From: Ignavibacteriales bacterium
Lineage (GTDB): Bacteria; Bacteroidota; Ignavibacteria; UBA10030
DNA: 64,000 nt
Assembly (NCBI GenBank): GCA_016193365.1
Contig: JACPSI010000123.1
Location: 20,543 to 84,542, forward strand
Direction: 5' to 3'
Positions 1-31,087 of the stretch are shown in pieces. A program made the translations under genes and the position numbers. A model generated the notes under the pieces. The model saw only the letters and a program-made list of their open reading frames with translations. It was not told where the DNA came from and did not search any database. Position 1 is the first letter of the stretch, and each line of letters begins with the position of its first letter.

Positions 1-1298
1 ACATCCGCCGCTATGACGAATGGTTTGTGACAAAGTTGCTCGTCGATGAAGGGCGATGTCTCGGCGTCGTGGCAATTGAGATCAGGAGCGGCAAGGTCGA
101 GGCAATACTCGCAAAGTCGGTCATTATTTGCACTGGAGGATGCGGTAGGGTTTTTCCCTTCACGACGAACGCCAATATCAAGAATGGGGACGGTATGGCG
201 CTTGCCTATCGCGCCGGTGTTCCTTTGAAGGACATGGAATTCGTTCAGTATCATCCCACGGGTCTTCCGTTTACCGGCATCCTCATCACCGAAGCAGCGC
301 GTTCAGAGGGCGGATGGATGCTCAACAAAGATAATTACCGCTACTTGCAAGATTACGACCTTGGCGTTCCGCAGCCAAAACCTGTCCTTCGGTCGATGGA
401 ACTTGGTCCGCGCGATAGGCTCTCACAGGCATTTGTCAAGGAGCAGGAGAAGGGCCGTACTCTCAAGGGACCCTACGGAGATTACGTCCACCTCGACCTC
501 CGGCATCTAGGGGAAGATGTGATGAACACGAAACTTCCGTTCGTTCGTGAGCTTTGTCTAAAATATGAAAACATCGATCCGGTGAAGAACATGATTCCTG
601 TGCGCCCGGTCGTCCATTACATGATGGGTGGCATTCACACGGACATTCAGGGAGCCACACCGTTGAAAGGCCTCTTTGCGGCGGGCGAGTGTGCATGCGT
701 TAGCATTAACGGAGCGAACCGTCTTGGCTCTAATTCTCTGACCGAGATCGTTGTGTTTGGCGCACGAGCGGGCAAAGCAGCGGCGCACTATGCCGCCGAA
801 CGGACATCGATGAGCCCATCAGTTGCGAAGCTCACCGCGGATGAACAAAAGCGGATTGAACGCCAGTTCTATGGAGGCGGAACACGCACAGAAAAAATCG
901 CTTCACTCCGAAAGGAAATGCATGAGGCGATGGAAAACGGGGCCGGGATCTATAGGACCGAATCATCGCTCAAACGCTCTCAAGAACGAATTCATGAACT
1001 GCAGGAACGATTCAAGAATATTTCTCTCTCAGATCAAAGCTATATCTTCAACACCGAGCTCATCGCCGCGATAGAGTTGTCGTACATGATCGACGTTGCC
1101 GAGACCATAATACAGTCTGCTCTCAGCAGAAAAGAATCCCGCGGTTCACATCAGCGGACAGACTATGCCAAGCGCGACGATCAAGATTATCTCAAACACT
1201 CGCTGGCATACCAGACAACAAAAGGTTCTCCACGAATTGAATATCTCCCAGTGACTATTACCCGGTGGCCTCCCGGAGAACGCGTCTACGGGAGGTAA
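1..1298 (+). CDS. frdA: Fumarate reductase/succinate dehydrogenase flavoprotein subunit, C-terminal ~430 aa (5' end outside the window)
   Basis: The frame is open from the window edge (IRRYDEWF precedes the GTG at 27). The product carries flavoprotein-subunit hallmarks [42 protein letters not shown] and ESRGSHQR. FrdB/C/D homologues lie downstream. Confidence 0.9.
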
Positions 1299-7949: not shown

Positions 7950-8333
7950 ATGGACGACCGCTTTTACCAGGGCATCGAGGAATTCAACGCCGGCCGCTAC
8001 TTCGAAGCACACGAAGTCCTTGAAGACCTCTGGCATGAATACCGCGAGACAGACCGCACGTTTATACAAGGACTCATTCAGATATCTGCGGGTTTTTATC
8101 ATTTCCAGTGCGCAAATTGGAAAGGGGCGAAGAGTCAGCTTTCAAAAGGCACAAAGAAACTTGCGGCTTTTAGACCTCAACATTTGGATCTTGATGTGGA
8201 AAAGCTTGTCAGCCAAACAACAATATGGTGCGAGAAGTTGGGCAAATACGAAGACGGAGGCACGCTGGATCGAAAATCATTGGCTTTTCCTCAGCTGAGA
8301 ATTGGTCGGGAGCGAGCACGGGCACATGCCTAG
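7950..8333 (+). CDS. DUF309 domain protein
   Basis: FNAGRYFEAHEVLEDLWHEY...GLIQISAGFYHF is the DUF309 signature. Confidence 0.8.
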   Translation: MDDRFYQGIEEFNAGRYFEAHEVLEDLWHEYRETDRTFIQGLIQISAGFYHFQCANWKGAKSQLSKGTKKLAAFRPQHLDLDVEKLVSQTTIWCEKLGKYEDGGTLDRKSLAFPQLRIGRERARAHA

Positions 8334-8475
8334 CTAATTGCGAGATAGACTTATCCAAACTTTACTGGAAAAATAATTGTCTATGTTCCCATGAAGGCTT
8401 GGATCTTACGCTTCATGGGTCGTGTAACTCTTGTTCCATTCGCAGGATCTTAATACACTCTTGCCTTTCAATCTC

Positions 8476-10086
8476 ATGTTGAAGGTACTCCTCTCGCATA
8501 GCCTTTTCGTCCTGCTGTTTATCACACACTTTAATCTATCGTGTGCCTCGATCCCACAATTGGTTGAGTTCCCAGAACGTGAATTGCAGAAGGAATTTTT
8601 GGCAAAAGAAGTTAAAAGATTAGGGGTATATGTACAACCTACAGGTCAAGACCATTACGAAAAAATCTTCGCAAATCTCCTTGGTTTCGATATCCTGTCG
8701 AGAGGATATCAGGTCGTTCAGTTTAATCGCCTGTTAAATGATTCTACTCAGAAAAACCTCTCGAACTCAAGGAATTTTGAGACATTAACTAAGTCCCTTA
8801 TCCAACTTCCCTTTGCTTCAAATGTGGATGCAATTGCGCTTGCATTGCTGAAAGTAGGCAGGTACCAGACTCGACTTACACCTCTCTATGAAGGTGGACG
8901 AACAAGAGGACCGGATGCACCTTACGTGGATGTTCGATTAGCAGTCATCGACGCAAGAAAAGGGAACTTGATATTCGGGGTTGGAGTCTCCGATTCGGTT
9001 CTTGTTATCCGAGAAGATGGATTCTTCGTTTATCTTGAGCATAAGAGGTTCATGCTTGAGCGAACGTTGGTCAAAGCACTCGCAAAATTCCCAATAAACG
9101 AAGAAGAACACAAAACGCTCGTCCAGGAGATTCCCATTATCTTTTATGTTGACGAGGGTTACAGGGATTTTTTTTCTCGCGATTGGCACGACCGACTACA
9201 ACGGAGACTTTTGTTTGTAAACGATATATTTTCTATGCAGGCTGGAATGGAGTTTGGTTTGAAGGAAATCCGGAAGTGGCAATCTTGGTTCACAGGGGAT
9301 CTCAGCAAATCTCTATCCAAATTGGAGCAAAGCGACACCTCGGGTAATTGGTTTAATGTCGGGGTCACGTTCGATAGAAAAGTCGCGAAGGACTGGTACA
9401 AACGAAACTATGTTGGAATCGCTTCACCGACAAGCAAATCAGCTGTGGTAACTGCTATTCCAGCATTTCCAGACTTGAGTACTTGGAATTCACTTGACGA
9501 ATCCTATACGCTCGCACATGAAATAGGCCATGTCATGGGACTTCCACATGTTCATGATCCACAATCACTAATGTTTCCAAGTACAGGAATGATGAGCTAT
9601 GAGTTGGACTCGGTAAGTCTGCGCATGTTGAAATCTTTTTCCAAAGATATCTTGAGCCTCCCGATGAAGGATGCAACCATGAGGCGCCTAAATGTGTTCA
9701 ACGCATGGTTCAACTCTAACATCGCACCAAACGTTGAATTTGTCCACGGTGTTTACACCGATATCGACCACGTATGGAAATTACAGAGAGGGTTTGAAGC
9801 CACAGATACCACGAACAGCATTGATTCCACAGATGCGAATCAATTGCTTAATCAACTCATCTCAAGCCAACCTCTGAGATTGGCTGTCCGGGGAATGGTT
9901 GAAATAAAGCACAAAAGGTGGGAGGAGGCTTTAAAGTTCTTCGAGATGGCTATAAAGGAGAAGCCAGACTTCACAGAAGCTTATCAGTATATTATGAGTA
10001 TCCATATTGAGCTCGGAAATCCATTTAGATCGGAACGTGCTTACAACAAGATTCTTGATTTAAATCCCAATTGGTTTGAAAAGTAA
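8476..10086 (+). CDS. Putative lipoprotein metzincin-type zinc metalloprotease with C-terminal TPR-like region
   Basis: HEIGHVMGLPH (HExxHxxGxxH) followed by a Met-turn-like SLMFP. The N-terminal signal has a lipobox-like FNLSC. C-terminal helical repeats (ALKFFEMAIKEKPDFTEAYQYI). ATG 8476 is preferred over TTG 8431. Confidence 0.7.
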   Translation: MLKVLLSHSLFVLLFITHFNLSCASIPQLVEFPERELQKEFLAKEVKRLGVYVQPTGQDHYEKIFANLLGFDILSRGYQVVQFNRLLNDSTQKNLSNSRNFETLTKSLIQLPFASNVDAIALALLKVGRYQTRLTPLYEGGRTRGPDAPYVDVRLAVIDARKGNLIFGVGVSDSVLVIREDGFFVYLEHKRFMLERTLVKALAKFPINEEEHKTLVQEIPIIFYVDEGYRDFFSRDWHDRLQRRLLFVNDIFSMQAGMEFGLKEIRKWQSWFTGDLSKSLSKLEQSDTSGNWFNVGVTFDRKVAKDWYKRNYVGIASPTSKSAVVTAIPAFPDLSTWNSLDESYTLAHEIGHVMGLPHVHDPQSLMFPSTGMMSYELDSVSLRMLKSFSKDILSLPMKDATMRRLNVFNAWFNSNIAPNVEFVHGVYTDIDHVWKLQRGFEATDTTNSIDSTDANQLLNQLISSQPLRLAVRGMVEIKHKRWEEALKFFEMAIKEKPDFTEAYQYIMSIHIELGNPFRSERAYNKILDLNPNWFEK

Positions 10087-10243
10087 CGATGTTAGGAGCA
10101 GGCTTCAGGAAATGCAGACTTAGAGCAAGGATGGACAAAACTAATGAAATAAGAGCTTGAATGAATTATCTAGTTTTCGTTAGATCGTCAATTTAAAAAC
10201 CTGATTACTTTAATCATCAATTGCTTGATTTTCAAAGAGCATA

Positions 10244-10591
10244 ATGCCAATCCAGCACAACCGCATCGACTACATCGAATTCCACGCAACCGACATCCCG
10301 GCCACAAAAAAGTTCTACGCAGATGTCTTTGGATGGAAATTCACGGACTACGGCCCCGATTACGTCGCCTTTGAAGATGGCCGTTTAACGGGCGGTTTTG
10401 AAAAATCTGAATCCGTTTCGAACGGCGGGCCTCTCGTTATCCTGTTCTCTTCGCAACTTGAGAAAACAAAAGCCGACGTGCTCACCCACGGCGGAAGAAT
10501 ATCGAAAGACATTTTTGCCTTTCCCGGCGGCCGCAGGTTTCACTTCCTCGACCCAAACGGGAATGAACTCGCCGTGTGGTCCGACAAATAG
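10244..10591 (+). CDS. VOC (glyoxalase/bleomycin-resistance fold) family protein
   Basis: 115 aa. IDYIEFHATDIPATKKFYADVFGW and FLDPNGNELAVW are typical VOC beta-alpha-beta-beta-beta modules. Confidence 0.8.
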   Translation: MPIQHNRIDYIEFHATDIPATKKFYADVFGWKFTDYGPDYVAFEDGRLTGGFEKSESVSNGGPLVILFSSQLEKTKADVLTHGGRISKDIFAFPGGRRFHFLDPNGNELAVWSDK

Positions 10592-10647
10592 ACTCAAGAT
10601 TGAATAATCTTGAGTGAACGAATTCAGAAAAAAACTTCGCTCAAACT

Positions 10648-10766
10648 GAGGTTGTCCAAAAAGTCGTCAAATCTTGGTAGCCGCAACCTTCAGGTTGCGA
10701 TTCCGCGCGAATTTCGCAGACATAAAGTCTGCGGCTACCGGTGAATCGTTCTTTTTGGACAACCTC
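10648..10766. repeat. 119-bp inverted-terminal-repeat element, variant of the GAGGCTGTCCAAAA MITE-like family
   Basis: Termini are GAGGTTGTCCAAAAAG ... CTTTTTGGACAACCTC. The interior holds a long-range stem GGTAGCCGC/GCGGCTACC plus hairpins GCAACCTTCAGGTTGC and GCAGACATAAAGTCTGC. Confidence 0.6.
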
Positions 10767-10834
10767 GGTGAGGTTGCCATTACAGCGCTTTTAGTGAAGA
10801 CTAAAGGCTCTGCAATCGGGTTTAGTGAATTGAC

Positions 10835-11410
10835 ATGACCAAAGGCCGACTCGAAGCCTTCAGCGACGGCGTACTCGCTATCATTATTACCATCATGGTC
10901 CTCGAATTGCGGGCGCCGCACTCCGCAGATGTGGCTGCGTTGATCCCTCTGTTACCGAAAGTGTTTAGCTACGTGCTGAGTTTTGTTTTTCTCGCAATTT
11001 ACTGGAACAACCACCATCACCTCTGTCAGGCAATCAAACATGTCAGCGGCGGCGTTCTGTGGGCAAACATCCATCTGCTCTTCTGGCTGTCGCTTACGCC
11101 GTTTGTAACAGCATGGATGGGTGAAAACAACTTTGCACCCTGGCCCGTCGCACTGTATGGAATTGTTCTCCTGTTCTCGGCGGTGGCATACTTCATCTTA
11201 ACTCGAGCTCTTCTTTCCATTCATAGCGAAGATTCTGCACTCGCAAAGGCTCTGGGCAATGATTTCAAAGGAAAGCTCTCTGTCGTGATCTATCTTTTTT
11301 CTATCCCGCTCGCGTTTGTGAACTCATGGTTTGCGGGGACTCTCTATGTCGTGGTCGCTCTCATGTGGCTCGTGCCAGACAAGAGGTTTGAGAAAACATT
11401 GACGCAGTAA
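10835..11410 (+). CDS. TMEM175-family (DUF1211) potassium channel-like membrane protein
   Basis: RLEAFSDGVLAIIITIMVLEL N-terminal signature and six predicted TM helices. Confidence 0.8.
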   Translation: MTKGRLEAFSDGVLAIIITIMVLELRAPHSADVAALIPLLPKVFSYVLSFVFLAIYWNNHHHLCQAIKHVSGGVLWANIHLLFWLSLTPFVTAWMGENNFAPWPVALYGIVLLFSAVAYFILTRALLSIHSEDSALAKALGNDFKGKLSVVIYLFSIPLAFVNSWFAGTLYVVVALMWLVPDKRFEKTLTQ

Positions 11411-19334: not shown

Positions 19335-20213
19335 ATGAAAAGAATTCTCTCGACTCTCACTCTCGTAATTGCGTTACCTCTTTTTTCCTCAGTTACTCTC
19401 AGCTGGGGATTTTGGGCTCACAAAGAAATTCACCGCTATGCCATTCAGTCCCTCCCGTCAGAAATGCGCCCGTTTTTTGAGGACTATGGTGATTCAATCA
19501 TCGCACGCTCCGTCGACGCAGACCGGCGAAGGAACGTAGACAAAAATGAAGGCCCGTATCATTATATCGACATTGACCGCTACGGGAAATATCCTTTTGA
19601 AGAGCTGCCGAGAAACTACGATGATGCAGTCAAGAAATTTGGCAAAGAGATGGTCGATACAAACGGGACCGTCCCCTGGCGTATTGCGAGTTTTACGGAA
19701 CGACTTACCGACGCGATGAAGAGGAAAGACAGAAGGTCGATGTTATTCCATGTCGCCAACCTCGGACATTACATTGCCGACGCTCACGTGCCGCTCCACA
19801 GCACGGAGAACTATGACGGTAAAATGACAAACCAGGCGGGGCTTCATTCACGCTGGGAAAGCCAGCTCCCGGAGAGGTTTGGCGGCGACTACAAGCTGGC
19901 GCCCGCAACCGCGGAACATATCGAGGACCCGCTCGCGACAGCTTTTGATGTTGTACTCGAGAGTTTTGAGCGCGTGGATTCGGTGCTTCGACTCGACTTG
20001 AAAGCTAAGGAAGGAATTCCTGAGTCCGAGCTGGTCACGACAAAACGTGAACGCGGGAGGACGGTATATCTCTACAGCGATAAATACTATGAGCGGTATC
20101 ATGCACTCCTCAACGGCATGGTTGAGCGGAGATTGAATGACGCCGTGCGCCGGGTTGCCAGTTATTGGTACACTGCATGGGTGAACGCGGGAAAACCAGA
20201 CCTTGTGAACTAG
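19335..20213 (+). CDS. S1/P1 nuclease / zinc-dependent phospholipase C-fold family protein (secreted)
   Basis: Signal peptide, then WGFWAHKEI at the mature N-terminus, and HYIADAHVPLHST metal-ligand motifs. Confidence 0.55.
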   Translation: MKRILSTLTLVIALPLFSSVTLSWGFWAHKEIHRYAIQSLPSEMRPFFEDYGDSIIARSVDADRRRNVDKNEGPYHYIDIDRYGKYPFEELPRNYDDAVKKFGKEMVDTNGTVPWRIASFTERLTDAMKRKDRRSMLFHVANLGHYIADAHVPLHSTENYDGKMTNQAGLHSRWESQLPERFGGDYKLAPATAEHIEDPLATAFDVVLESFERVDSVLRLDLKAKEGIPESELVTTKRERGRTVYLYSDKYYERYHALLNGMVERRLNDAVRRVASYWYTAWVNAGKPDLVN

Positions 20214-20662: not shown

Positions 20663-21055
20663 GTGGAATCATTTCTGCAGGTTGTCCAGATGGTCGCGCT
20701 CATCAGCGCCTCGGCCCTCTGCGTGTATCTTATCATCACTCTCGTGAAACTGAATGACCTGTTTGGGATGCTCCAGAAGGACTTGGGAGAGATTTCCAGA
20801 AACGCAAAGCCGGTATTTGAGAACCTGAATGTCATCACCGAGAAATTGAAATCCATCAGCACAAAAGTGGATGAGCAGGCAAACATGTTCAGGGATTCCA
20901 TGGAATCTTTCAGGATGCTGGCGGAGAACGTTCTGGAGTTCGAGAGAAGGATTGAACAACGCGTGGAAGAGCCTATCATACGCGTGACATCGATCCTCGG
21001 CGGCCTGGTCGACCGATTCACTTCGTTGTTCCGGCGGCCGCAAACCCCGCAGTAA
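20663..21055 (+). CDS. DUF948-like membrane-anchored coiled-coil protein
   Basis: GTG start, one N-terminal TM helix, then a helical region (LNDLFGMLQKDLGEISRNAKPVFENLNVITEKL). Commonly paired with YtxH genes. Confidence 0.6.
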   Translation: MESFLQVVQMVALISASALCVYLIITLVKLNDLFGMLQKDLGEISRNAKPVFENLNVITEKLKSISTKVDEQANMFRDSMESFRMLAENVLEFERRIEQRVEEPIIRVTSILGGLVDRFTSLFRRPQTPQ

Positions 21056-21127: not shown

Positions 21128-23236
21128 GTGGCACAAGCTCACTTTAAAGAATATTCCGTCGATAAGATTCGCAACGTCAGCCTTATCGGTCACGGCGGGT
21201 CGGGAAAAACGACGTTGACCGAGGCTCTTCTCTTTACCACAGGGACGACAAACCGTCTCGGCAAGGTCGACGACGGCTCGACCGTTTCGGATTATCATCC
21301 GGACGAAATCGAAAGAAAAATCTCCATCAACGCGTCGCTCCTCCACGCAGAGTGGCAAGGAACCAAGGTCAACGTTCTGGACACGCCGGGATACTCCGAC
21401 TTCATCGGCGAAGTGCTGAGCTCGCTGAGGGTATCGGACACGGCCGTCGTTCTCGTCAAGGCTGTGGAAGGAGCGGAGGTTGGCACGGAGATCGTCTGGA
21501 ATTACGCAAGAGAATACAAAACGCCCACCCTGGTGCTCGTCAATAAGCTGGACAACGAAAACGCCGAATTCGACCATGCGCTTTCCACGATACGGGAACG
21601 GTTTGGCCATGATGTTACCGTCGTGCAGTTTCCCGTCAACCAGGGCTTGCCGTTTGATTCCGTCGTGGACGTCCTTCGGATGAAACTGCTGAAATTCAAC
21701 CGCGATGGGACCGGAAAGTTTACTGAAAGTGATATTCCCGCCGACCTGAAACAAAGAGCCGATGCCCTCCATGAAGAGCTCATTGAAAAAATCGCCGAAA
21801 CGGACGAAGAATTGATGAACAAGTTTTTCGAGGACGGCACGTTGAAAGAGCCCGAGCTTCAGCGTGGAATGCGGGTGGCGCTCCTTGCGCGCAAAATTTT
21901 CCCCGTGTTCTGCGCGGCTTCTTCCATGAACGTCGGCACTGTCCCCCTTATTGATTTTCTCATCAACTATGCGCCCTCGCCAAAAGACAGAGGCGAGGTG
22001 ACAGCAAAGGACCTTCAGGCAAAAAAGGAAATATCCGTCGCTCCCGACGCAGCCAGGCCGCCTGCGGTTTTTGTTTTTAAAACGGTTTCGGAACAGCATG
22101 TGGGGGAGCTCTCGTATTTCCGCGTCTACTCAGGTGCAATTTCTCCAGGCATGGACCTTCTCAACGAAACAAACGGGAAAACGGAGCGTTTGGGTCAGGT
22201 CTTTTTGATGAACGGCAAAGAACGACGTGAAGTCGGCAAACTCCTTGCCGGAGACATCGGCGCCGTTGTCAAGCTCAGAGACACGCACACGAACAATACG
22301 CTGAGCAGCAAAGCTTTTCCCGTTGAGTTTCCGCCCATTCAGTTCCCCGACCCGGTGATTCGAATGGCGATTGTGTCGAAATCGAAAGGAGACGAGGACC
22401 GCATCGCCACAGGTCTTCATTATCTCCACGAAGAAGACCCCACCTTTGTCGTCCAGGTGGATGCGCAGCTGAGCCAAACGGTCATCGCGGGGCAGGGAGA
22501 GTTGCACCTGCTTATTGTCACGAAACGGCTCAAAGAAAAATACGGTGTCGATGTTGACCTTGCCGAGCCGAGAATTCCGTATAAAGAAACCATCAAGGGC
22601 GTGGTTCCGAATGTCGATTACAAGCACAAGAAACAAACGGGCGGACGTGGCCAATTCGGCCATGTGTACCTGAAAATAGAGCCAAAGCCGAGAGGAACCG
22701 GTTTTGAGTTTGAGGATGCCATTGTTGGAGGAGTTGTGCCGGGAAGATTCGTCCCAGCAGTCGAAAAAGGCATTGTCGATATCATGCACAAAGGTGTCAT
22801 TGCGGGTTACGAAGTCGTCGATGTGAAGGTCACATTGCATGATGGGTCGTATCATACTGTGGACTCCGACGAACTGTCGTTTAAGATCGCTGGTTCCATG
22901 GCATTCAAGAAAGGTTTCATGGATGCACGGCCCGTGATATTGGAGCCGATTAACGAGGTGGAAGTTGTGGTCCCTGAAGAATACATGGGTGACGTCATGG
23001 GGGATCTTTCGGCGCGGCGCGGGAAAATTCAGGGAATGGAGACTGAAGGTCCATTCCAGAAAATCAAAGCCCTTATCCCCATGGCCGAGTTACACAAGTA
23101 CTCAACGATTCTTCGCTCCATGACTCAAGGCAGAGGAATTTACCGCACCAAGTTTTCCCACTACGACGAACTCCCGCGCGAACAAGCCGAAAAAGTCATC
23201 GCCGCGCACGATAGAGCAAAAGTGGAAGCTGCTTAA
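21128..23236 (+). CDS. fusA: Elongation factor G paralogue (EF-G2-like translational GTPase)
   Basis: 702 aa. G1 GHGGSGKTT, G3 DTPGYSDF and G4 NKLD, plus EF-G domains II-V (HLLIVTKRLKEKYGV, KKQTGGRGQFGHV). It is not in an str-operon context, and G1 deviates from the canonical AHIDAGKTT. Confidence 0.85.
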   Translation: MAQAHFKEYSVDKIRNVSLIGHGGSGKTTLTEALLFTTGTTNRLGKVDDGSTVSDYHPDEIERKISINASLLHAEWQGTKVNVLDTPGYSDFIGEVLSSLRVSDTAVVLVKAVEGAEVGTEIVWNYAREYKTPTLVLVNKLDNENAEFDHALSTIRERFGHDVTVVQFPVNQGLPFDSVVDVLRMKLLKFNRDGTGKFTESDIPADLKQRADALHEELIEKIAETDEELMNKFFEDGTLKEPELQRGMRVALLARKIFPVFCAASSMNVGTVPLIDFLINYAPSPKDRGEVTAKDLQAKKEISVAPDAARPPAVFVFKTVSEQHVGELSYFRVYSGAISPGMDLLNETNGKTERLGQVFLMNGKERREVGKLLAGDIGAVVKLRDTHTNNTLSSKAFPVEFPPIQFPDPVIRMAIVSKSKGDEDRIATGLHYLHEEDPTFVVQVDAQLSQTVIAGQGELHLLIVTKRLKEKYGVDVDLAEPRIPYKETIKGVVPNVDYKHKKQTGGRGQFGHVYLKIEPKPRGTGFEFEDAIVGGVVPGRFVPAVEKGIVDIMHKGVIAGYEVVDVKVTLHDGSYHTVDSDELSFKIAGSMAFKKGFMDARPVILEPINEVEVVVPEEYMGDVMGDLSARRGKIQGMETEGPFQKIKALIPMAELHKYSTILRSMTQGRGIYRTKFSHYDELPREQAEKVIAAHDRAKVEAA

Positions 23237-23463
23237 AACGGCTATTAATTTCAACCTCTCCTTCCAATGCTTCCAGTGCTTTTGTAAGGACAAAAGAATT
23301 ATCCATTGCGTTTGGCATAGCAATTTCCTAAACTAATGCCCAAACAAATGGAGCCGAAGGTAATGCCCCACATCCACAAGGCTTCCCCTGGCACCATAAC
23401 CGTCCGCGAAGTTCATACCCTCCACAAGACTGATAGCACATTGAACGAAGACCGACCTCTCTC

Positions 23464-24643
23464 ATGGCGAAAACAAGCCAAGAGATAAGTCTCTTATTCC
23501 GAAAAGCCAAAGTTGACAGATCGTGGTCTTTTGACGACAATCGATCAACTGACACATGGACACATGGCTTTCACAGGTACCCCGCAAAGTTCCTGCCAGA
23601 ATTGGTGAAAAAGCTCATTGAACGCTATGCTAAGAAGGACGATCTCGTGGCTGACCTGTTTGCAGGATGCGGCACAACCTTGGTTGAATCTAAGATTCAC
23701 GGCAAAAGATGTGTTGGAGTCGACATCAATCCAGTCTCCCGATTAATCACAGAAGCGAAAACAAATGCTATAGAACCTCGCAAGCTGGATCGATACTTTC
23801 AGAAAGTTCTTCGAGATATATCAAAATACAAGTATGATAAAAGCGCAATCGTTCAGAAGCATCAAAGACTAGTTTATTGGTTCGGCAAACGACGGCGAGC
23901 TAAGATTGATTACTTGTATAAGTCGATTGCTGGATTGAGAGACAAAAACGTCAAAATATTCTTTCAGTGCGCCCTTTCAAACATTCTAAAGAATTGTTCG
24001 AGATGGTTGCAGACTAGTACGAAACCTCAGATTGATCCTGACAAAAAATCAGCAGATCCTTTTTTGGCTTTCAAGTATCAAGCAAAGAGAATGATCTCAC
24101 AAAACAAAACATACTACAATCACTTAAAAGCCCAAAAAATACTAAGCACCAGTTGCAAGATCAAACTAGCTGATGCTAAGCACACTGGAATAAGGTCTAA
24201 TTCAGTTGGAATTATTATCACCTCACCCCCATATGTCACTTCGTATGAATATGCGGACATTCATCAACTTACCGGCTACTGGTTTAGTTATTTCAAAAAC
24301 ATACATACCTTTCGTAGAAAGTTCATTGGGACTTTCTACTCCGGCAACAACAGTTTGGTGGTTAATGGAGCGCTTGCTCAGCAGACTGTTCAGAAATTGT
24401 TTTCAAAAGACCCGAGAACCGCTAAAGAAGTGGCGAACTTTTTTAATGACATGGATCACTGGCTATCTGTTGGCTAACAATTTGAAGATAAAAAAAGTGG
24501 TCAGAAGAAGTATACCGTGGAAGCACAAGTTAATTCCAACCATAAGGGACAAGGTGACTGGAAGATTTTCGACGATACGAGCTATGAATAGTACGCTGGT
24601 TTATCCAAATGAATATATCATTATAGCTTCAAAGGCAGCATGA
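23464..24643 (+). pseudogene. Alpha-type amino-DNA methyltransferase (N4-C or N6-A; SPPY class) with a frame break near its 3' end
   Basis: HRYPAKFLPELV, AdoMet motif DLFAGCGTTLVES and VGVDINP, then catalytic IIITSPPY ~185 aa later (order I...TRD...IV = alpha class). Frame 1 stops at 24477 (FFNDMDHWLSVG*). A family-like C-terminus (IPWKHKLIPTIRDKVTGRFS...YPNEYIIIASK) continues in the +1 frame to 24643 (tail of track ORF 24206..24643). Confidence 0.7.
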
Positions 24644-26871
24644 AAAACAAGATTGGAAAACTCACGCCGCGACCTTACGCCCGTCTGCTGACAATGATTG
24701 GTGAGCAGCTTATTAAGAATGAGAAAGTGGCTTTAGTTGAGATTATAAAGAACTCATATGATGCGGACGCAGACTGGGTGCAAGTGAGATTTATTGACTT
24801 CGATGAGAGCGAAGGAGATCTAATGCCATCAAAGGAGTCCATGGTTGAAATAGAAGACAACGGGGATGGAATGACATTCGATGTGATATCAGACTCATGG
24901 ATGAATCCAGCATCACCGACGAAGTTTCTCGCAAAAGAGAAGGGGCGTAAGTTCACGAAGAGGAAGGAGCGAGTTATTCAAGGCGAAAAAGGGATTGGAA
25001 GATACGCTGTGTTTAAGCTGGGCAGGTCAATTGAAATAATTACGAAGTCCATTGAAAAAAATAGCCCGGAGATTGTCGTTCGAAATGATTTTTCCGAATT
25101 TGACGAAGAGATGATAAGCGATCGTGGTAAGAAAGGTTCACCTATTTTTCTTGATGAGATAAGGTACGACTACGAGGTTAGAAATGATCCTGTAGAATTC
25201 GTGGAAAAGGAACTTGATGTGAGAGGGAAGAGGGAAAAGCGGAATCATGGCACAATAATTAGAATACGGAGCGTCGCAGGCGATTGGTCGATCAGGAGGA
25301 TCGAGGAAATCGCCGAAGACACCTCGAAGATGGGATATCCATTCTCCGAAGATGAAATTAAGCAAGATTTCATCGTTGACTTTGTGATCAATAATGTAAG
25401 TGTGATGGCAGAAGATCCAAAGTCAGAATTGGAGAGACTCTTCGAGAAAGCTCCTCTCAGGGTTATTAATGGGAGATACTTGTCTGCTAGTCAGAAGTTT
25501 TCTTTTGAGCTAAACGGTAAGGAAACAGATTTCTCGATAGATCGACTAAAGGAGAACAAAGAGTTTAGGGACTATTTTTGTGAGAAAAAAACATTAAGAA
25601 TTAAGAGGAAGCCTGAATGTGGTTCATTCAGCTTCCAGTTCTACGTTTTCGATCTGACTTCAGAGGCCCCAAGCAAGTATATGCTTGATATCAATGAAAA
25701 GAAGTTTGTGAGAAAGCACAGGATATACTTGTACAGGGATGGCATCAGAGTGTATCCATACGGCGATCCATCAGATGACTGGTTAGGAATTGACGTCCTT
25801 CGGGGAACAGGCCGAGCAGGAGACTACCTCAGTAATGACCAAACGATTGGTTACATCGGGATTACGAGAGATGGCAACCCCTATTTAAAGGATAAAACTA
25901 ATCGAGAGGGTCTGCTTGAAATAGGATATTCATTGAGTGATTTCCGAGTTCTTATTCAAGGTTTGATTGGCCTCTTGCATGTGGAATACAAAAAGTACAA
26001 GTCTTCCACCAGGAGCAAGCAAATAATTCGTGCTTTTCAACTGCGCGATATCGAGACTCATTTCGAATCTCTGATTTCACATTTGGAGAGCAAAGGTGAC
26101 CCGAAGTCTGTAAGCTTGGTACGTGAATTGTTAAAGGAATACGAGAAGGAAAGAAAATATTTACTTGAAAGATCTGAAGTGACAGAAGACCTTGCTGCCG
26201 TTGGACTCACCGTCGAAGCAGCCTCTCATGATCTTATGATAATGCTTAATAAAGCCAAAAAGGTCATTGATCGTCTTATTTCGTTGTTGGACCAGCCGAC
26301 CATTGAAAAATCTAAGCTGAAAGAAAATCTCACGACATTAAAGGGCCAAATAGAGTTCATTGGTTACAATATAGAGGGGATTCAACCGCTGTTTAGGTCA
26401 TCGAAAAGGGGAGCCCAAAACCTAAATGTTCGTGCGGTTATTAATAATGTTAGAAGATACTATGAAGACTTATTGATGAGACACGACATAAAGTTTACGA
26501 TTTCTCAAAAAGGGGACGATTTGGTCGTGAGAACTAACGAGGCCGTTTTACTTCAGTCGTTCATGAATCTACTCGACAATTCAATCTATTGGCTGAATAC
26601 ATCCGATAAAGGTGCGAAAGAAATACAAGTAACCATCAATTCGAAAAGGCAACGTGTGCTATTTGCTGATAACGGACCTGGTGTCGCAAAAGAGAATATC
26701 CCGTACATCTTCGAACCCTTCTTTTCTACGAAAGGGATTAGTGGACGCGGCCTTGGTTTGTATATAGCTCGTCAGCTCATGGAGAGAAACGGATTCAGTA
26801 TTGATTATATCGATTCTAAAGGGGTGCTTAATGGGGCAAATTTCTTATTGAGCTTTGCACCGCCAGACTAA
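24640..26871 (+). CDS. Soluble dual-GHKL protein: N-terminal MORC/Hsp90/MutL-type ATPase + C-terminal histidine-kinase core (DHp H-box + HATPase_c)
   Basis: N-terminal Bergerat motifs EIIKNSYDADA, IEDNGDGM and GEKGIGRYAVFKLG. The middle region has IYLYRDGIRVYPYGDPSDDWLGID. C-terminal H-box VEAASHDLMIML, N-box FMNLLDNSIYW, G1 ADNGPGV, F-box FEPFFSTK and G2 GRGLGLYIARQLME. No TM or PAS/GAF-type sensor is evident. The ATG overlaps the upstream frame's stop (ATGA). Confidence 0.8.
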   Translation: MKNKIGKLTPRPYARLLTMIGEQLIKNEKVALVEIIKNSYDADADWVQVRFIDFDESEGDLMPSKESMVEIEDNGDGMTFDVISDSWMNPASPTKFLAKEKGRKFTKRKERVIQGEKGIGRYAVFKLGRSIEIITKSIEKNSPEIVVRNDFSEFDEEMISDRGKKGSPIFLDEIRYDYEVRNDPVEFVEKELDVRGKREKRNHGTIIRIRSVAGDWSIRRIEEIAEDTSKMGYPFSEDEIKQDFIVDFVINNVSVMAEDPKSELERLFEKAPLRVINGRYLSASQKFSFELNGKETDFSIDRLKENKEFRDYFCEKKTLRIKRKPECGSFSFQFYVFDLTSEAPSKYMLDINEKKFVRKHRIYLYRDGIRVYPYGDPSDDWLGIDVLRGTGRAGDYLSNDQTIGYIGITRDGNPYLKDKTNREGLLEIGYSLSDFRVLIQGLIGLLHVEYKKYKSSTRSKQIIRAFQLRDIETHFESLISHLESKGDPKSVSLVRELLKEYEKERKYLLERSEVTEDLAAVGLTVEAASHDLMIMLNKAKKVIDRLISLLDQPTIEKSKLKENLTTLKGQIEFIGYNIEGIQPLFRSSKRGAQNLNVRAVINNVRRYYEDLLMRHDIKFTISQKGDDLVVRTNEAVLLQSFMNLLDNSIYWLNTSDKGAKEIQVTINSKRQRVLFADNGPGVAKENIPYIFEPFFSTKGISGRGLGLYIARQLMERNGFSIDYIDSKGVLNGANFLLSFAPPD

Positions 26872-26880
26872 GGAGGCACG

Positions 26881-28044
26881 ATGGCTTCTGCTCTCACGAA
26901 AGGTTTCGCAGTCATTATCGATGACGATTTTGGTAAAGAGAATTCAGATGATCTTATTTTTGAAATCGTTAAGAAAATCGAGGAATACGGCATACCAGTT
27001 TATAAGTGTGATTCACTTGCCCGCGCAACCAAGTTTGCGCAGAATTTTACTGAAATCAACTTTATTGTGCTCGATTGGAGGCTTTATCAATTCAATGAGA
27101 ATGTTACGGTTACCGAAGAAATTAAACAGGATAATGCAAAACAAAATGTGAAATTCCTCAATCAGCTGAAGAAGATATGCTTTGCTCCAGTTTTCTTATT
27201 CAGCTCCGAAGATGAAAAGGATGTCATTGCTGAATTGAAGGCAGTCGCGCCTGAACTTTACAATGATGACATGCAAAGAAACTTCATTTTTGTTAGAAAA
27301 AAGGAAGCGCTTGTAAAAGGCAATAAACTTTTCGAAGAAATATCTGGTTGGATCGAGAAAAATCCGACTATATACACGCTGAAGAAATGGGAGGAGTCCT
27401 TCTTAAGATCAAAGAACGACAGCTTTTGGATGTTGTTTGAAAGAAGTCCGGTTTGGCCGAGTATTCTGTGGAATTCTTTTGAAAGGGACTCAGTAGACGA
27501 AAGTTACAATATTTATGAGCAACTATATCGCATAGTCGAAGGAAGAGCATTGCGGTCGCCCTTAGATAAGAGTCTAGTACTTGGTACAGCGATACCAAGC
27601 GGGAATAATGATATTATGGGTGTCATTCGAGCAACAATGTTTGTGGAGGTAGGCAATATTCAAACAGATGACATTCAACCAGGCGACATTTATAAGATGG
27701 AAGATGGTACATACCTAATTAATGTTAGGCCAGTTTGTGACACTGTTTATAATAGAAAAAACAAAGATGGCAAGAATGCATTCGACGGTGACCTTTACTT
27801 ACTTAAAGGAACTAGAATAGGAGCGGAGGAATTTGAAGATAAACACTTTGATAAGACTTACGGCATAAAACAACCTGTGAATGCGTACGTGGTCTACGGG
27901 GTTGAGGATGCAAGTTTCTACCGATTTCAGTTCAAGAAACTCATAACAAAGAAATTTGATGAGCTTAGAACAAAGAGGATTCAGAGATTATTGCCCCCCC
28001 CATATTATTTTCCTCCAACAGAATTATTCGGCATACGCCGGTAG
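26881..28044 (+). CDS. CheY-like receiver domain protein with uncharacterised ~250-aa C-terminal (output/effector) domain
   Basis: AAGGAGG Shine-Dalgarno sequence 5 nt upstream. Receiver landmarks appear in the right order and spacing: AVIIDDD (beta1 acidic pair), FIVLDWRL (phospho-acceptor Asp), PVFLFSS (beta4 Ser/Thr) and FIFVRKK (beta5 Lys). The C-terminal domain has no motif I recognise. A C8 tract at 27994-28001 lies 14 codons before the stop. Confidence 0.75.
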   Translation: MASALTKGFAVIIDDDFGKENSDDLIFEIVKKIEEYGIPVYKCDSLARATKFAQNFTEINFIVLDWRLYQFNENVTVTEEIKQDNAKQNVKFLNQLKKICFAPVFLFSSEDEKDVIAELKAVAPELYNDDMQRNFIFVRKKEALVKGNKLFEEISGWIEKNPTIYTLKKWEESFLRSKNDSFWMLFERSPVWPSILWNSFERDSVDESYNIYEQLYRIVEGRALRSPLDKSLVLGTAIPSGNNDIMGVIRATMFVEVGNIQTDDIQPGDIYKMEDGTYLINVRPVCDTVYNRKNKDGKNAFDGDLYLLKGTRIGAEEFEDKHFDKTYGIKQPVNAYVVYGVEDASFYRFQFKKLITKKFDELRTKRIQRLLPPPYYFPPTELFGIRR

Positions 28045-28135
28045 AGTTGGAGTCCCCAGATTCCCGGATGATGCGGTAACATCATTACTCGAAAACGCAA
28101 AGAAACAGAAAAAAAAGTAATATCGGATTTCTCGA

Positions 28136-28161
28136 AACCCCGCCTCGCGTGGGGTTTTTTG
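28136..28161 (+). terminator. Intrinsic terminator closing the island operon
   Basis: AACCCCGC-CTC-GCGTGGGG hairpin followed by TTTTTTGTTT. Confidence 0.65.
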
Positions 28162-28216
28162 TTTCTATTCTCGACTGCTTTCACAAAAGATTTTGCGTAC
28201 ATTACAATTTCCCGCG

Positions 28217-31087
28217 ATGCTGAAAGCGCAAAAACCCAGAGATTTGATGCCTTCCCCAAAAACAAAGCATCGAAATACGGAGGCTAAAATCCCAAAACCG
28301 GGCAACGGCTCCAGGATCACACACATTACCATTCGCGGAGCCAGAGTTCACAACCTCAAGAATATCAACCTCGAGATTCCGCGGGATAAACTCATCGTCA
28401 TCACAGGCGTCAGCGGTTCGGGAAAATCCAGCCTGGCTTTTGATACGATCTATGCAGAAGGACAACGCCGATATGTCGAAAGCCTCTCGTCGTATGCACG
28501 CCAATTTCTGGAGCGAATGGAAAAACCGGACGTCGACCTGATCCAGGGAATCAGCCCCGCCATCGCCATCGAACAAAAAACAACCACCCGCAACCCGCGC
28601 TCGACCGTTGCCACCACGACAGAAGTCTATGATTATCTTCGCCTTCTTTATGGAAGAATAGGGAAAACCTATTGCCGGCAATGTGGAAACCTTGTTCAGC
28701 GCAGCACCGTTTCCTCGGCTGTTGAAAGACTCTTGCAAGAGGCAGAGGGAACAAAGATATTCGTCATGTTTCCGCTACACGACCATCCGGGAAGGTCGAT
28801 GAAGGAAGAATTCCAGGCTCTCAAGAAGCGGGGGTTTTACCGCATCGTCGTCGACGGCAAGATGATAGATCTGAATGAAAACGACTATAAAGGCAAAGAG
28901 AAGAAGGCTGTGAGCGTGCTTGTGGACCGACTCATCGTCCGCAGGAACGACAAGGAAGCTCAAACACGCATTGTCGATTCCATCGAAACTGCATTTGTCG
29001 AAGGTGACGGCTATGCTTTGATCTATGACCTCGACAAAAAGACGACACTGAAATTCAGCCAGCATTATGAATGCTCCAACGACGGCATTCGCTACGATGA
29101 CCCTGAACCACGCTTTTTCTCGTTTAACAATCCTGTTGGAGCATGCCCCAAATGCCAGGGGTTTGGACGTTCCATTGGGATCGACATGAATCTCGTTGTT
29201 CCAAATCCGAACAAGACGATTCGCCAGGGAGCCATTCAACCGTGGACGTTTCCCCGATGGAGGGAGAATCTCGCCGACCTGCTTCGGGTTGCCAAGCAAG
29301 CGGGAATTTCAGTCGACGTCCCATTTGCAAAGCTCAATGAACTGCAGCTCGACGTCATTATGAACGGCTACGACGGTTTCGATGGAATCAACAGGTTCTT
29401 CAAGTTCATCGAGCGCAAGTCATACAAAATTCACTATCGGGTGTTTTTAAGCCGTTACCGCGGCTACACGACATGCGATGAGTGCGGCGGTTCACGTTTG
29501 CGCAAGGAAGCCCTGAACATCAAAGTCGGCGAGAAAACAATTCATGAAGTCGTTAAAATGACGATTGCAGAGGCGAATGAGTTTTTTCGAAGCCTCAAAT
29601 TATCTCTTTATGACGCCGAGGTGGGAAAGCGTATTCTTGAAGAAATCAGCAAGCGACTGCGATTTCTCAATGAAGTCGGCATCGGGTATGTTACGTTGGA
29701 TCGTTTGACCATGACATTATCAGGCGGAGAGTCACAGCGCATCAACCTCGCCACATCGCTTGGTTCATCCTTGCGGGATTCCGTCTATGTTCTCGACGAG
29801 CCCAGCATTGGCTTGCATCCACGAGACAACTCCAGGTTGATCAATATTTTAAAATCCCTTCGTGACCTCGGAAACACTGTCGTCGTCGTCGAGCATGATG
29901 AGGATATGATTCGTTCGGCTGATGTTGTGGTGGACATGGGCCCAAAAGCCGGGGAGCATGGGGGCGAGGTTGTTTTTTGCGGGGATCTGGAGGGGTTAAA
30001 AAAAGATTCCGCCTCACTCACGGCGCAATATCTCAATCAGAACCTCACTATTCCCGTTCCGAAATACCGGAGGAAAGATCCGGAGGAATCTGTGTATGTG
30101 CGAGGGGCTTCTGAGAATAATCTGAAGAATATCGATGTGCGCATTCCCCTCAAAATTTTTGCCTGCGTCACAGGAGTAAGCGGCTCGGGGAAAAGCACCT
30201 TGGTTCACGACATCCTTTTCGCCGGCCTCCAAAAAAGGAAAGGCATCTTCGACGGCAGTGTCGGCAAATGTGTTGCCATCGAAGGGGCGGATAATATCAG
30301 CCATGTGGAAATGGTGGACCAATCGCCCATCGGCAGAACGCCGCGGTCGAATCCCATCACGTACATCAAGGCGTTTGATCTCATTCGGGATCTCCTCTCC
30401 GAAACCCAGGCAGCAAAGATTCGCGGTTTCAAGCCGGGGCATTTTTCCTTCAACGTGCCGGGGGGACGCTGTGAAACGTGCGAAGGCGACGGCGTTCAGA
30501 AAATCGAAATGCAGTTCCTCGCTGACCTTTACCTCACATGTGAATCCTGCAAGGGCAAACGGTTCAAGAAAGAGGTTCTGGACATCCGGTTTCGGGGAAA
30601 AAATGTCGACGACATTCTCAAAATGACCGTCACCGAAGCGATTGCGTTTTTCGCACAGTCGGTGGAGGGAAAAAGAGTTGCGCGTCGATTGAAAGTCCTG
30701 GATGATGTCGGCCTGGGCTATTTGCGGCTCGGCCAACCGGCAACGACGCTTTCAGGAGGCGAGGCGCAACGGATCAAACTCGCTCATCATCTTTCAGCAA
30801 CAGAAACCGAGGGGAAAACGCTTTTCCTGTTCGACGAGCCCACAACAGGGTTGCACTTTGACGACATCGCAAAACTCTTGAAATGTTTCGATGCGCTCGT
30901 TGATGCTGGACATTCAATACTCGTTATCGAGCACAATATGAACGTGATCAAATGTGCGGATTTTATTATCGACCTGGGACCTGAGGCGGGAAACGAAGGG
31001 GGAGAGATTGTAGCGACAGGGACGCCGGAAGATATTGCGCGTTCGCCGAAATCGCATACGGGCAGATTCCTCAAACAGTATCTGTAA
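28217..31087 (+). CDS. uvrA: Excinuclease ABC subunit A
   Basis: [62 protein letters not shown] second ABC module (GVSGSGKST; LSGGEAQR twice) and Cys4 zinc modules. The start is uncertain: in-frame candidates at 28193 (TTG), 28217 (ATG) and 28247 (ATG). Confidence 0.95.

Follow-up and report, generated by a model that had tools for sequence, protein, structure and literature searches.

The three genes described here are located in a 64,000-nucleotide stretch (the window) of contig JACPSI010000123.1 from an Ignavibacteriales bacterium. They are consecutive open reading frames (ORFs) on the same strand, of 337, 743 and 387 amino acids, flanked by a paralogue of elongation factor EF-G on the left (positions 21128–23236) and by uvrA on the right (28193–31087); their coordinates are given in Table 1. 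An initial annotation, made by reading the sequence, had described a block of three co-directional genes encoding a DNA methyltransferase, a soluble histidine kinase with two GHKL domains and a protein in which a receiver is fused to an effector, and had proposed a candidate undescribed two-component defence system. The ORF list contains the three co-directional genes, and the 9-nucleotide gap that had been noted before the third of them is also there: TAAGGAGG is followed by 9 nucleotides and then by the ATG of the receiver-effector gene. Comparison across genomes reveals the trio to be a strictly conserved, self-contained and mobile three-gene cassette.

The kinase, encoded by the second gene, is a soluble and apparently intact protein. 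It starts with a GHKL ATPase domain of the MORC/Hsp90 type (HATPase_c_3), followed by a conserved middle domain, a predicted DHp helix and a carboxy-terminal catalytic domain (HATPase_c). When a profile of 41 homologues is aligned to histidine kinases of solved structure, His530 falls on the phospho-histidine of the LvrB H-box. The ATP-binding motifs of the amino-terminal GHKL domain (E34, N38, D73-G75-G77 and G115-G120), His530 and the residues of the N, G1, F and G2 boxes are invariant in these 41 homologues, in line with the earlier reading of the protein as a soluble histidine kinase with two GHKL domains. At the level of sequence, the canonical residues of a two-component pair are all present, namely the H-box and the N/G1/F/G2 boxes in the kinase and the Asp-Asp pair, phospho-Asp, Ser/Thr and Lys in the receiver. 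Relatives of the kinase number in the thousands, and the 120 best were compared with Pfam. Two PHROG families without assigned function, phrog_8137 and phrog_6203, are also matched by the kinase, and seven close relatives, 39–51% identical, are encoded on IMG/VR contigs classed as viral (L250–L256).

The receiver-effector was modelled with AlphaFold at a predicted local distance difference test (pLDDT) score of 85.0 for the whole chain and 86.6 for residues 147–387. Its amino-terminal part has the CheY fold, with Foldseek matches to FixJ, CheY, KdpE and others; in 24 family sequences D14 is nearly invariant, while D65 and K141 are invariant, as expected from its earlier assignment as a CheY-like receiver with the landmark residues. 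The carboxy-terminal 250 or so residues, in which no motif had been recognised, form a helical bundle and a beta-barrel in the model, and the protein family has no match in Pfam, NCBIfam, PADLOC or PHROG. When the barrel is compared to the PDB with Foldseek, ranks 1–27 all go to MazF, CcdB or related toxins of the mRNA-interferase group, with a probability of 0.89–1.0, E of 1e-2 to 2e-1 and a target-normalised template modelling (TM) score of 0.48–0.59. Among the viral predicted structures of BFVD, PemK-like proteins are found at ranks 1, 6 and 26, and the sole credible matches are PemK/MazF-like. The barrel is thus predicted to have an SH3-type fold like that of Kid and CcdB. No DNA-binding or nuclease fold is present among the matches of this confident model in the PDB or BFVD. 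An ordinary DNA-binding output domain, which the initial annotation had named as an outcome to be checked for, was rejected on this basis.

In the subfamily of the window protein, the conserved polar residues of the barrel are G268-D269, N281, R283-P284 and C286-D287. Across all subfamilies of the carboxy-terminal module, only the G(D) and PxCD motifs and the carboxy-terminal RxGxP tail are kept, D269 being replaced by glycine in the Enterobacterales subfamily. The barrel of residues 254–372 or so resembles the MazF/PemK/Kid and CcdB toxins in its predicted fold, and the spacing of a GD...RP pattern is reminiscent of MazF. This MazF-like reading of the model is suggestive only, because just the three aforementioned motifs survive across subfamilies. 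Unlike these toxins, the barrel forms one protein with a receiver and a helical bundle, and no antitoxin gene accompanies it; to our knowledge, the toxins also lack the invariant Cys-Asp. A word-index search with the third gene found 24 relatives, a low count that is an artefact of sensitivity, since 817 clusters at 50% identity are returned by an exhaustive profile search, and 387 of these clusters fall below 1e-30.

A survey of about 185,000 species genomes, one genome per species, found members of the kinase superfamily in 418. The best 80 loci were examined, and the kinase ORF could be called in 79. These best 80 of 418 loci belong to Bacteroidota, Omnitrophota, Planctomycetota, Cloacimonadota, Patescibacteria, Proteobacteria, Desulfobacterota, Nitrospirota, Acidobacteriota, Firmicutes and several archaeal groups. 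The ORF that starts at the kinase stop codon matches the receiver-effector profile in 77 of the 79 loci (E 1e-41 to 1e-160), and the ORF that ends at the kinase start is of the window methylase family in 73 of 75; contexts retrieved from the side of the third gene contain the identical trio. Kinase and receiver genes are therefore co-conserved, as a functional pairing of the kind first proposed would have it, with the methylase alongside. Pfam and PADLOC scans of the 123 immediate neighbours revealed no fourth conserved gene (C-protein/XRE, HNH or other nuclease), and clustering across the 79 loci found no recurring small ORF within 700 nucleotides of the trio, the region upstream of the methylase included. 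The 123 neighbours contain 10 further N6_N4 methylases, ResIII, BsobI, AccI and a type I R subunit, and nine of them match the PADLOC model of the MADS methylase mad2. Restriction-modification genes make up about 10–15% of the immediate neighbours, apparently more than such genes generally account for in a genome.

In some Nitrospirales, Arenicellales and Thermodesulfobacteriota, a gene for a protein of about 890–990 amino acids abuts the trio (L124, 11374–14334; L139, 11399–14350; L154, 11508–14174; L105, 4081–6753), overlapping the receiver stop codon by four nucleotides in L124 and L139. The loci with this gene, and those with a mad2 neighbour, may be larger composite systems.

The first gene of the window matches the Pfam family N6_N4_Mtase (3.6e-15) and MTase_II, the type II methylase model of PADLOC (5e-42). 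Its motifs are in the alpha order, with motif I (FAGCGTT) followed by the target-recognition region and SPPY, as in an N6/N4 DNA methyltransferase. The earlier assignment as an alpha-type SPPY methyltransferase stands as to family and motif order, but the gene is not one intact frame reaching the kinase: the ATGA that had been taken for an overlap of the first two genes is present at 24640–24643, but the first reading frame stops earlier, at 24477. When the intact methylase of locus L087 (423 amino acids, 55% identical) is aligned by tblastn, its residues 3–328 match frame 1, to position 24453, and its residues 373–420 or so match a second frame, at about 24476–24640. About 44 conserved residues are missing in between, among them the strand LKxxGxxxLVIGD, and it is the TGA of the carboxy-terminal remnant that overlaps the kinase ATG. 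Upstream methylases of other loci were re-checked with a methylase profile. Where the contig allows, each of the 73 related upstream ORFs and of the re-checked loci has a methylase of about 411–490 amino acids in a single frame that spans the whole profile, and no re-checked locus whose upstream sequence is long enough has a broken gene. Because of its internal deletion of about 107 nucleotides and its frameshift relative to these intact relatives, the window methylase can be classed with confidence as a pseudogene.

The third gene also appears to be damaged, by an additional base in a run of eight cytosines (C8). Its product leaves the family at ..RLLPP, and one base later the DNA reads CPPHIIFLQQNYSAYAGRVGVPRFP.., the family consensus; when one C is removed from the run, RLLPPHIIFLQQNYSAYAGRVGVPRFP.. 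appears, which is likewise the consensus. The frame-corrected protein has 412 amino acids, the stop codon moving to 28119–28121, and the last 15 or so codons of the present ORF are out of frame. With the tail, the motif [FY]SxYxxRxGxP is lost, one of the few segments common to all subfamilies. No other C8 run occurs in the window, whose 12 further homopolymers of seven nucleotides or more sit inside intact ORFs; two suspicious pairs of overlapping ORFs elsewhere in the window turned out to be distinct genes. Assembly-wide homopolymer errors were rejected as the cause of the lesions, in view of these 12 runs and of the size of the methylase deletion. Programmed phase variation at C8 was rejected too, as merely one of 77 homologues has a C6 at that codon position. 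The frameshift is probably real. With its methylase destroyed and its effector deprived of the conserved carboxy-terminal tail, the window copy reads as a decayed relic. It is the sole copy with a dead methylase, and its effector is crippled as well. The converse is seen in L141 (10250–11499) and L143 (10211–11424), where the receiver-effector is split into two ORFs and the methylase is kept intact, consistent with loss of the effector being tolerated.

The island differs from its surroundings in composition. Its G+C content is 0.409, versus 0.497 ± 0.023 for the remainder of the window, and every 1-kb window outside the island lies above the island mean. The G+C content at third codon positions (GC3) is 0.39–0.45 in the island genes and 0.55–0.63 in the flanking genes; the shares of AGA (0.37 versus 0.13), ATA (0.30 versus 0.08) and CTC (0.14 versus 0.33) differ likewise between island and flanks, and TTA codons are also commoner in the island genes. 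What had been judged by eye as an A+T-rich block of deviating codon usage is borne out by these values. Proteins 94% and 84% identical to the EF-G paralogue occur in metagenome-assembled genomes and place the host in the Ignavibacteriaceae. In five relatives (L170, L171, L172, L184 and L192) the site is empty, with uvrA directly after EF-G and 90–250 nucleotides between them. DNA homology to the empty-site relatives ends at 23229–23236 and restarts at 28191–28304, and in the junction alignment the frame-corrected receiver-effector stop (TAA) falls opposite the stop codon of EF-G in the relatives. The block from about 23240 to 28125 is a horizontally acquired insertion in an Ignavibacteriaceae chromosome, as the initial annotation had supposed, and its landing point lies between the stop codon and the terminator of the EF-G paralogue. 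The hairpin and T-run that had been thought to close the block do exist, but belong to the EF-G paralogue: orthologous hairpins follow the EF-G stop codon at a distance of 25–45 nucleotides in L170 (about 2075–2105), L171 and L172, which identifies the structure as the old EF-G terminator. Being inserted between stop codon and terminator, the cassette is probably read through from EF-G. The leader contains no convincing promoter consensus; the best match, at 23513–23541, falls within the methylase ORF.

Table 1. Features of the three-gene island and its right-hand border (window positions; residue numbers refer to the protein concerned)
Feature	Position	Strand	Basis
Island left end; 227-nucleotide non-coding leader from the EF-G stop (23236) to the methylase ATG	23237..23463	+	Homology to L170–L172 ends at 23229–23236
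Methylase, classed as pseudogene, N-terminal 337 codons	23464..24477	+	Pfam and PADLOC matches; homology to intact relatives ends at 24453
Methylase, deletion junction	24454..24478	+	About 25 nucleotides replace 44 codons of relatives (YQVAKEMKRILKRNGKVCLVIGD...); about 107 nucleotides lost, frame shifted
Methylase, C-terminal remnant in second frame (..KIKKVVRRSIPWKHKLIPTIRDKVTGRF..EYIIIASKAA*)	24476..24643	+	tblastn frame-2 segment; last 55 or so codons
Kinase, soluble, 743 amino acids, apparently intact	24640..26871	+	Pfam domains, homologue profile
Kinase, N-terminal MORC/Hsp90-type GHKL ATPase (HATPase_c_3)	residues 29–158, 24724–25113	+	Pfam
Kinase, conserved middle domain	residues ~160–500	+	Conservation in homologues
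Kinase, predicted DHp helix with His530	26227–26229	+	Alignment to solved histidine kinases
Kinase, catalytic domain (HATPase_c)	residues 635–727, 26542–26820	+	Pfam
Receiver-effector ORF as now read, 387 amino acids	26881..28044	+	AlphaFold, Foldseek, conservation
Receiver-effector, CheY-like receiver	residues 8–146; Asp65 at 27073–27075	+	Foldseek
Receiver-effector, predicted helical bundle	residues 147–253	+	AlphaFold model
Receiver-effector, predicted beta-barrel	residues 254–372	+	AlphaFold model; Foldseek to MazF/CcdB/PemK
Receiver-effector, C8 homopolymer with probable +1 frameshift	27994..28001	+	Family consensus regained on removal of one C
Receiver-effector, probable original C-terminal tail, now out of frame; island right end	28002..28121	+	Frame-corrected reading
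Intrinsic terminator (hairpin and T-run), ancestral to the EF-G paralogue, outside the island	28134..28158	+	Orthologous hairpin in relatives

Elsewhere in the window, a second stretch of low G+C content (0.44–0.46) is present at 8001–11000. It contains an ORF (8431–10086, GC3 0.455) for a Reprolysin/M12-like metallopeptidase with TPR repeats, which is possibly another acquired gene. On the 5' side of the EF-G paralogue, genes for an S1/P1-nuclease-like secreted protein (19335–20213) and a DUF948 protein (20663–21055) lie outside the island and are syntenic in related Ignavibacteria.

Several described systems share elements with the trio. Detocs consists of the kinase DtcA, the buffer receiver DtcB and the effector DtcC, a receiver fused to a PNP domain, and is without a methylase or a second GHKL module. 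It resembles the trio in its phosphorelay logic and in the fusion of a receiver to an effector. It differs in that the three-gene island has no PADLOC Detocs match, no buffer receiver and no PNP domain. With the 2023 PADLOC models, kinase and receiver protein have no match at E ≤ 0.1; Detocs, and any other PADLOC system, were rejected accordingly, and the initial annotation was right that a Detocs-style buffer receiver and PNP effector are lacking; it had also been unable to match the trio to a named system. Its description of the system as undescribed fared less well: the kind had already been reported in silico in 2021 (PMC8011034), and a homologous kinase acts in the Ambrosia defence system of a 2025 preprint (10.1101/2025.09.30.679545).

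In that purely computational study, Bellieny-Rabelo et al. described soluble kinases composed of HATPase_c_3, a new DHp domain (HEF_HK, PF19191) and HATPase_c. Of these HEF_HK kinases 91.6% are linked to a receiver-like protein, Response_reg_2 (PF19192), and methylase genes, mostly of the C5 type, lie just upstream; descent from paraMORC ATPases was proposed, and a role in the regulation of restriction-modification was speculated upon (PMC8011034). The window has the same arrangement of a soluble HATPase_c_3, DHp and HATPase_c kinase beside a receiver-like gene, with a methylase upstream. However, PF19191 is absent from the window kinase (E ≤ 0.1) and from its 120 best relatives, PF19192 is matched by none of 24 receiver-effector members at E ≤ 1, and the study, with its mostly C5 methylases, does not describe a carboxy-terminal module of the receiver (PMC8011034). 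A bridge to PF19192 was found neither via four sister receivers, nor among the 120 listed matches of a profile seeded with three sister receivers, nor via plasmid relatives, nor by an E. coli genome search, which gave no match. Membership in the Pfam pair HEF_HK/Response_reg_2 was rejected, given that no PF19191 or PF19192 match and no bridge could be established. A related kinase in Acinetobacter baumannii DETAB-P16 (L169, 3629–7883) is the only one in this analysis with a PF19191 match, a weak one. Its partner is a different protein, of 646 amino acids, with no Pfam match and no similarity to the receiver-effector.

Ambrosia comprises the XRE regulator AbrR, the N6 methylase AbrA, the HATPase kinase AbrB, the receiver AbrC and the HNH protein AbrD; it protects Pseudomonas aeruginosa from phages, and the substitutions N40A in AbrB and D60A in AbrC abolish defence (10.1101/2025.09.30.679545). 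The preprint gives AbrC a receiver and a winged helix, finds that infection induces the genes, and reports the system from Gammaproteobacteria only (10.1101/2025.09.30.679545). The window kinase is 28% identical to AbrB over 450 residues (E 6e-33, BLASTP, with the first 399 amino acids, preprint Table S1). The motifs ELxKNxYDADA, DDGxGM, RxYRDxxRVxPYGDP and D[KQ]TNREGL are common to both, and N40 of AbrB, the Mg-binding asparagine of the GHKL domain, corresponds to N38 in the window kinase. As here, the Ambrosia kinase is a soluble protein of about 745 residues with HATPase_c_3, a middle domain and HATPase_c, and its gene lies between those of a DNA methylase and a receiver. The partners differ. 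AbrA is of the N6_Mtase/NPPF type (PF02384), whereas the window methylase is of the N6_N4 (PF01555) SPPY type. AbrC has 209 residues and no effector module, whereas the window protein has 387 (412 when corrected), with an output module of 250 residues; hhalign detects no similarity between AbrC and the receiver-effector family (probability 0.8%). Ambrosia needs a separate HNH nuclease and has an XRE regulator, neither of which is present in the island or conserved in the 79 loci, and the window family spans many bacterial and archaeal phyla rather than Gammaproteobacteria alone.

Closer in their effector are variants with a C5 methylase, found on Campylobacter conjugative plasmids and on Acaryochloris pREB1. 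Their kinase is 29–31% identical to that of the window over the full length, and their receiver carries the same carboxy-terminal module (hmmsearch 2e-10), with GD, PxCD and FSRYxxRxGxP. They differ in their Dcm-type methylase, which is sometimes on the opposite strand, in their canonical Response_reg-like receiver, and in that N281 and R283 are not conserved. The C5 variant is carried by 41 Campylobacter plasmid records, such as C. jejuni pAR-0413-1 (L166, 4992–9457), where it adjoins vapD and a HicB antitoxin gene and is annotated just as sensor histidine kinase, response regulator and dcm. The paraMORC ATPases, which are typically partnered with nucleases (PMC2292703), have a GHKL domain with intact ATP-binding motifs, followed by an S5-fold domain, in a restriction-modification context (Iyer et al. 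2008). The window kinase, with its intact GHKL motifs and a context that fits, is a candidate relative. The window family is a member of neither Ambrosia, HEF_HK/Response_reg_2 nor Detocs, and is best filed as a minimal variant of methylase-linked two-component systems with a MORC-like kinase.

For the intact cassettes we favour, at a probability of roughly 0.55, a phosphorelay that is linked to methylation, triggered by the kinase and directed against phages through the release of a toxic effector borne by the receiver. The N6/N4 methylase would mark the host's own DNA. The GHKL ATPase and the middle domain would together sense a cue inside the cell, most likely DNA that is unmodified or foreign, or else another sign of infection, upon which the kinase would autophosphorylate on His530, as its conserved residues would allow. 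The phosphoryl group would pass to Asp65 of the receiver. This would release the effector, the helical bundle and MazF/CcdB-like barrel with the invariant PxCD, to arrest the growth of cell or phage through toxicity, with nucleic acid or some host component as the target. A separate nuclease would not take part, because no fourth gene is conserved. A link of the family to defence is suggested by the function of the homologous kinase AbrB in Ambrosia, by the restriction-modification neighbours, and by the carriage of variants on conjugative plasmids and on a few viral contigs. The lesions provide circumstantial support: an effector that does harm without self-methylation should be lost together with the methylase, as seen in the coupled damage here, and the presence of the methylase in all intact cassettes fits the same expectation. 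Cloning of 23.3–28.2 kb of the window, which the initial annotation had suggested, would most likely give no phenotype because the methylase is broken and the effector frameshifted. A bolder version, which we hold only tentatively, is a minimal "signal-transducing restriction-modification", in which a GHKL-clamp kinase would itself read DNA methylation and unleash a receiver-gated toxin of MazF/CcdB fold.

A number of points weigh against this interpretation. The trio family is known from its genes and predicted structures alone, and that the kinase reads the methylation state is something we infer. The 123 immediate neighbours are heterogeneous and mainly ordinary genes. The Ambrosia authors favour transcriptional control, and the methylase of their system does not protect phage DNA (10.1101/2025.09.30.679545). 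The likeness of the barrel to MazF and CcdB is at the level of the fold (Foldseek E of about 1e-2, TM score 0.5–0.6), and the arginine that would match Arg29 of MazF is not kept in the sister subfamilies. Alignment with hhalign to MazF, Kid, EndoA and CcdB, the four reference sequences having been entered by hand, gives probabilities below 1%, and no PDB sequence is matched at E ≤ 10 in a profile search; sequence-level homology to MazF/CcdB was rejected for these two reasons, and fold similarity alone stands. As to the relic, the C8 frameshift could be an assembly error.

The strict linkage to a methylase, with no other nuclease present, also suits a cassette of the same logic in which the carboxy-terminal module is a new DNA endonuclease and not a toxin, making up a true restriction-modification system whose nuclease is licensed by phosphorylation. 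The conserved acidic residues D269 and D287 flank a beta-hairpin, and paraMORC ATPases usually have nuclease partners (PMC2292703). We nevertheless regard this as unlikely. Searches of the kinase and receiver protein in Pfam, NCBIfam, PADLOC, PHROGs and with Foldseek reveal no nuclease fold or family, the methylase family being present but broken here, and one of the two acidic residues, D269, is the one replaced in Enterobacterales. A diffusible phosphorylated receiver would also forfeit the positional information that a restriction enzyme needs. Somewhat less probable still is an ordinary regulatory two-component system, whose carboxy-terminal module would bind DNA and control, at the level of transcription, either the methylase gene or restriction genes located elsewhere. 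Regulation was proposed for their own systems by the authors of both earlier studies (PMC8011034; 10.1101/2025.09.30.679545), the winged helix of AbrC and the induction of the Ambrosia genes on infection point the same way, and the helical bundle is without assigned function. Against it, the aforementioned Foldseek matches lack a DNA-binding fold, AbrC is dissimilar to the window protein, no nuclease or other gene that could be regulated is conserved with the trio, and the invariant Cys-Asp and RxGxP tail resemble an active or interaction site more than a helix-turn-helix.

A selfish addiction module or epigenetic switch without an anti-phage role, of which the window would hold a dead copy, is in our view improbable. 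It would account for the patchy, horizontally spread distribution, for the constant retention of the methylase, for the coupling of the two lesions and for the mostly housekeeping neighbours. On the other hand, Ambrosia, with its homologous kinase, gives measurable protection against phages, and restriction-modification genes are over-represented next to the trio. Addiction and defence are not mutually exclusive in systems that resemble restriction-modification.

Environmental sensing is the textbook role of two-component phosphorelays; their immune roles, as in Detocs and Ambrosia, are just emerging. The trio family adds a compact and widespread form with three genes, in which receiver and effector are one protein and a separate nuclease would not be needed. 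The window copy itself, a decayed relic, is a poor experimental object; the interest of the family lies mainly in its compact architecture and in its uncharacterised, apparently receiver-gated effector of predicted toxin fold. Its intact members may offer a clean model for the sensing of nucleic acid or methylation by a MORC-like GHKL ATPase and for the coupling of this sensing to a kinase output. If the methylation-reading version is true, methylation would serve to tell self from non-self without DNA cutting, by way of an abortive-infection effector, and the joint loss of methylase and effector in the window would be the footprint of that autoimmunity. The family would also bring a receiver-gated effector of toxin fold to the list of immune effectors. 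For annotation, a defence function is probable for hundreds of genes that lie beside a methylase and are now labelled as sensor histidine kinase or response regulator.

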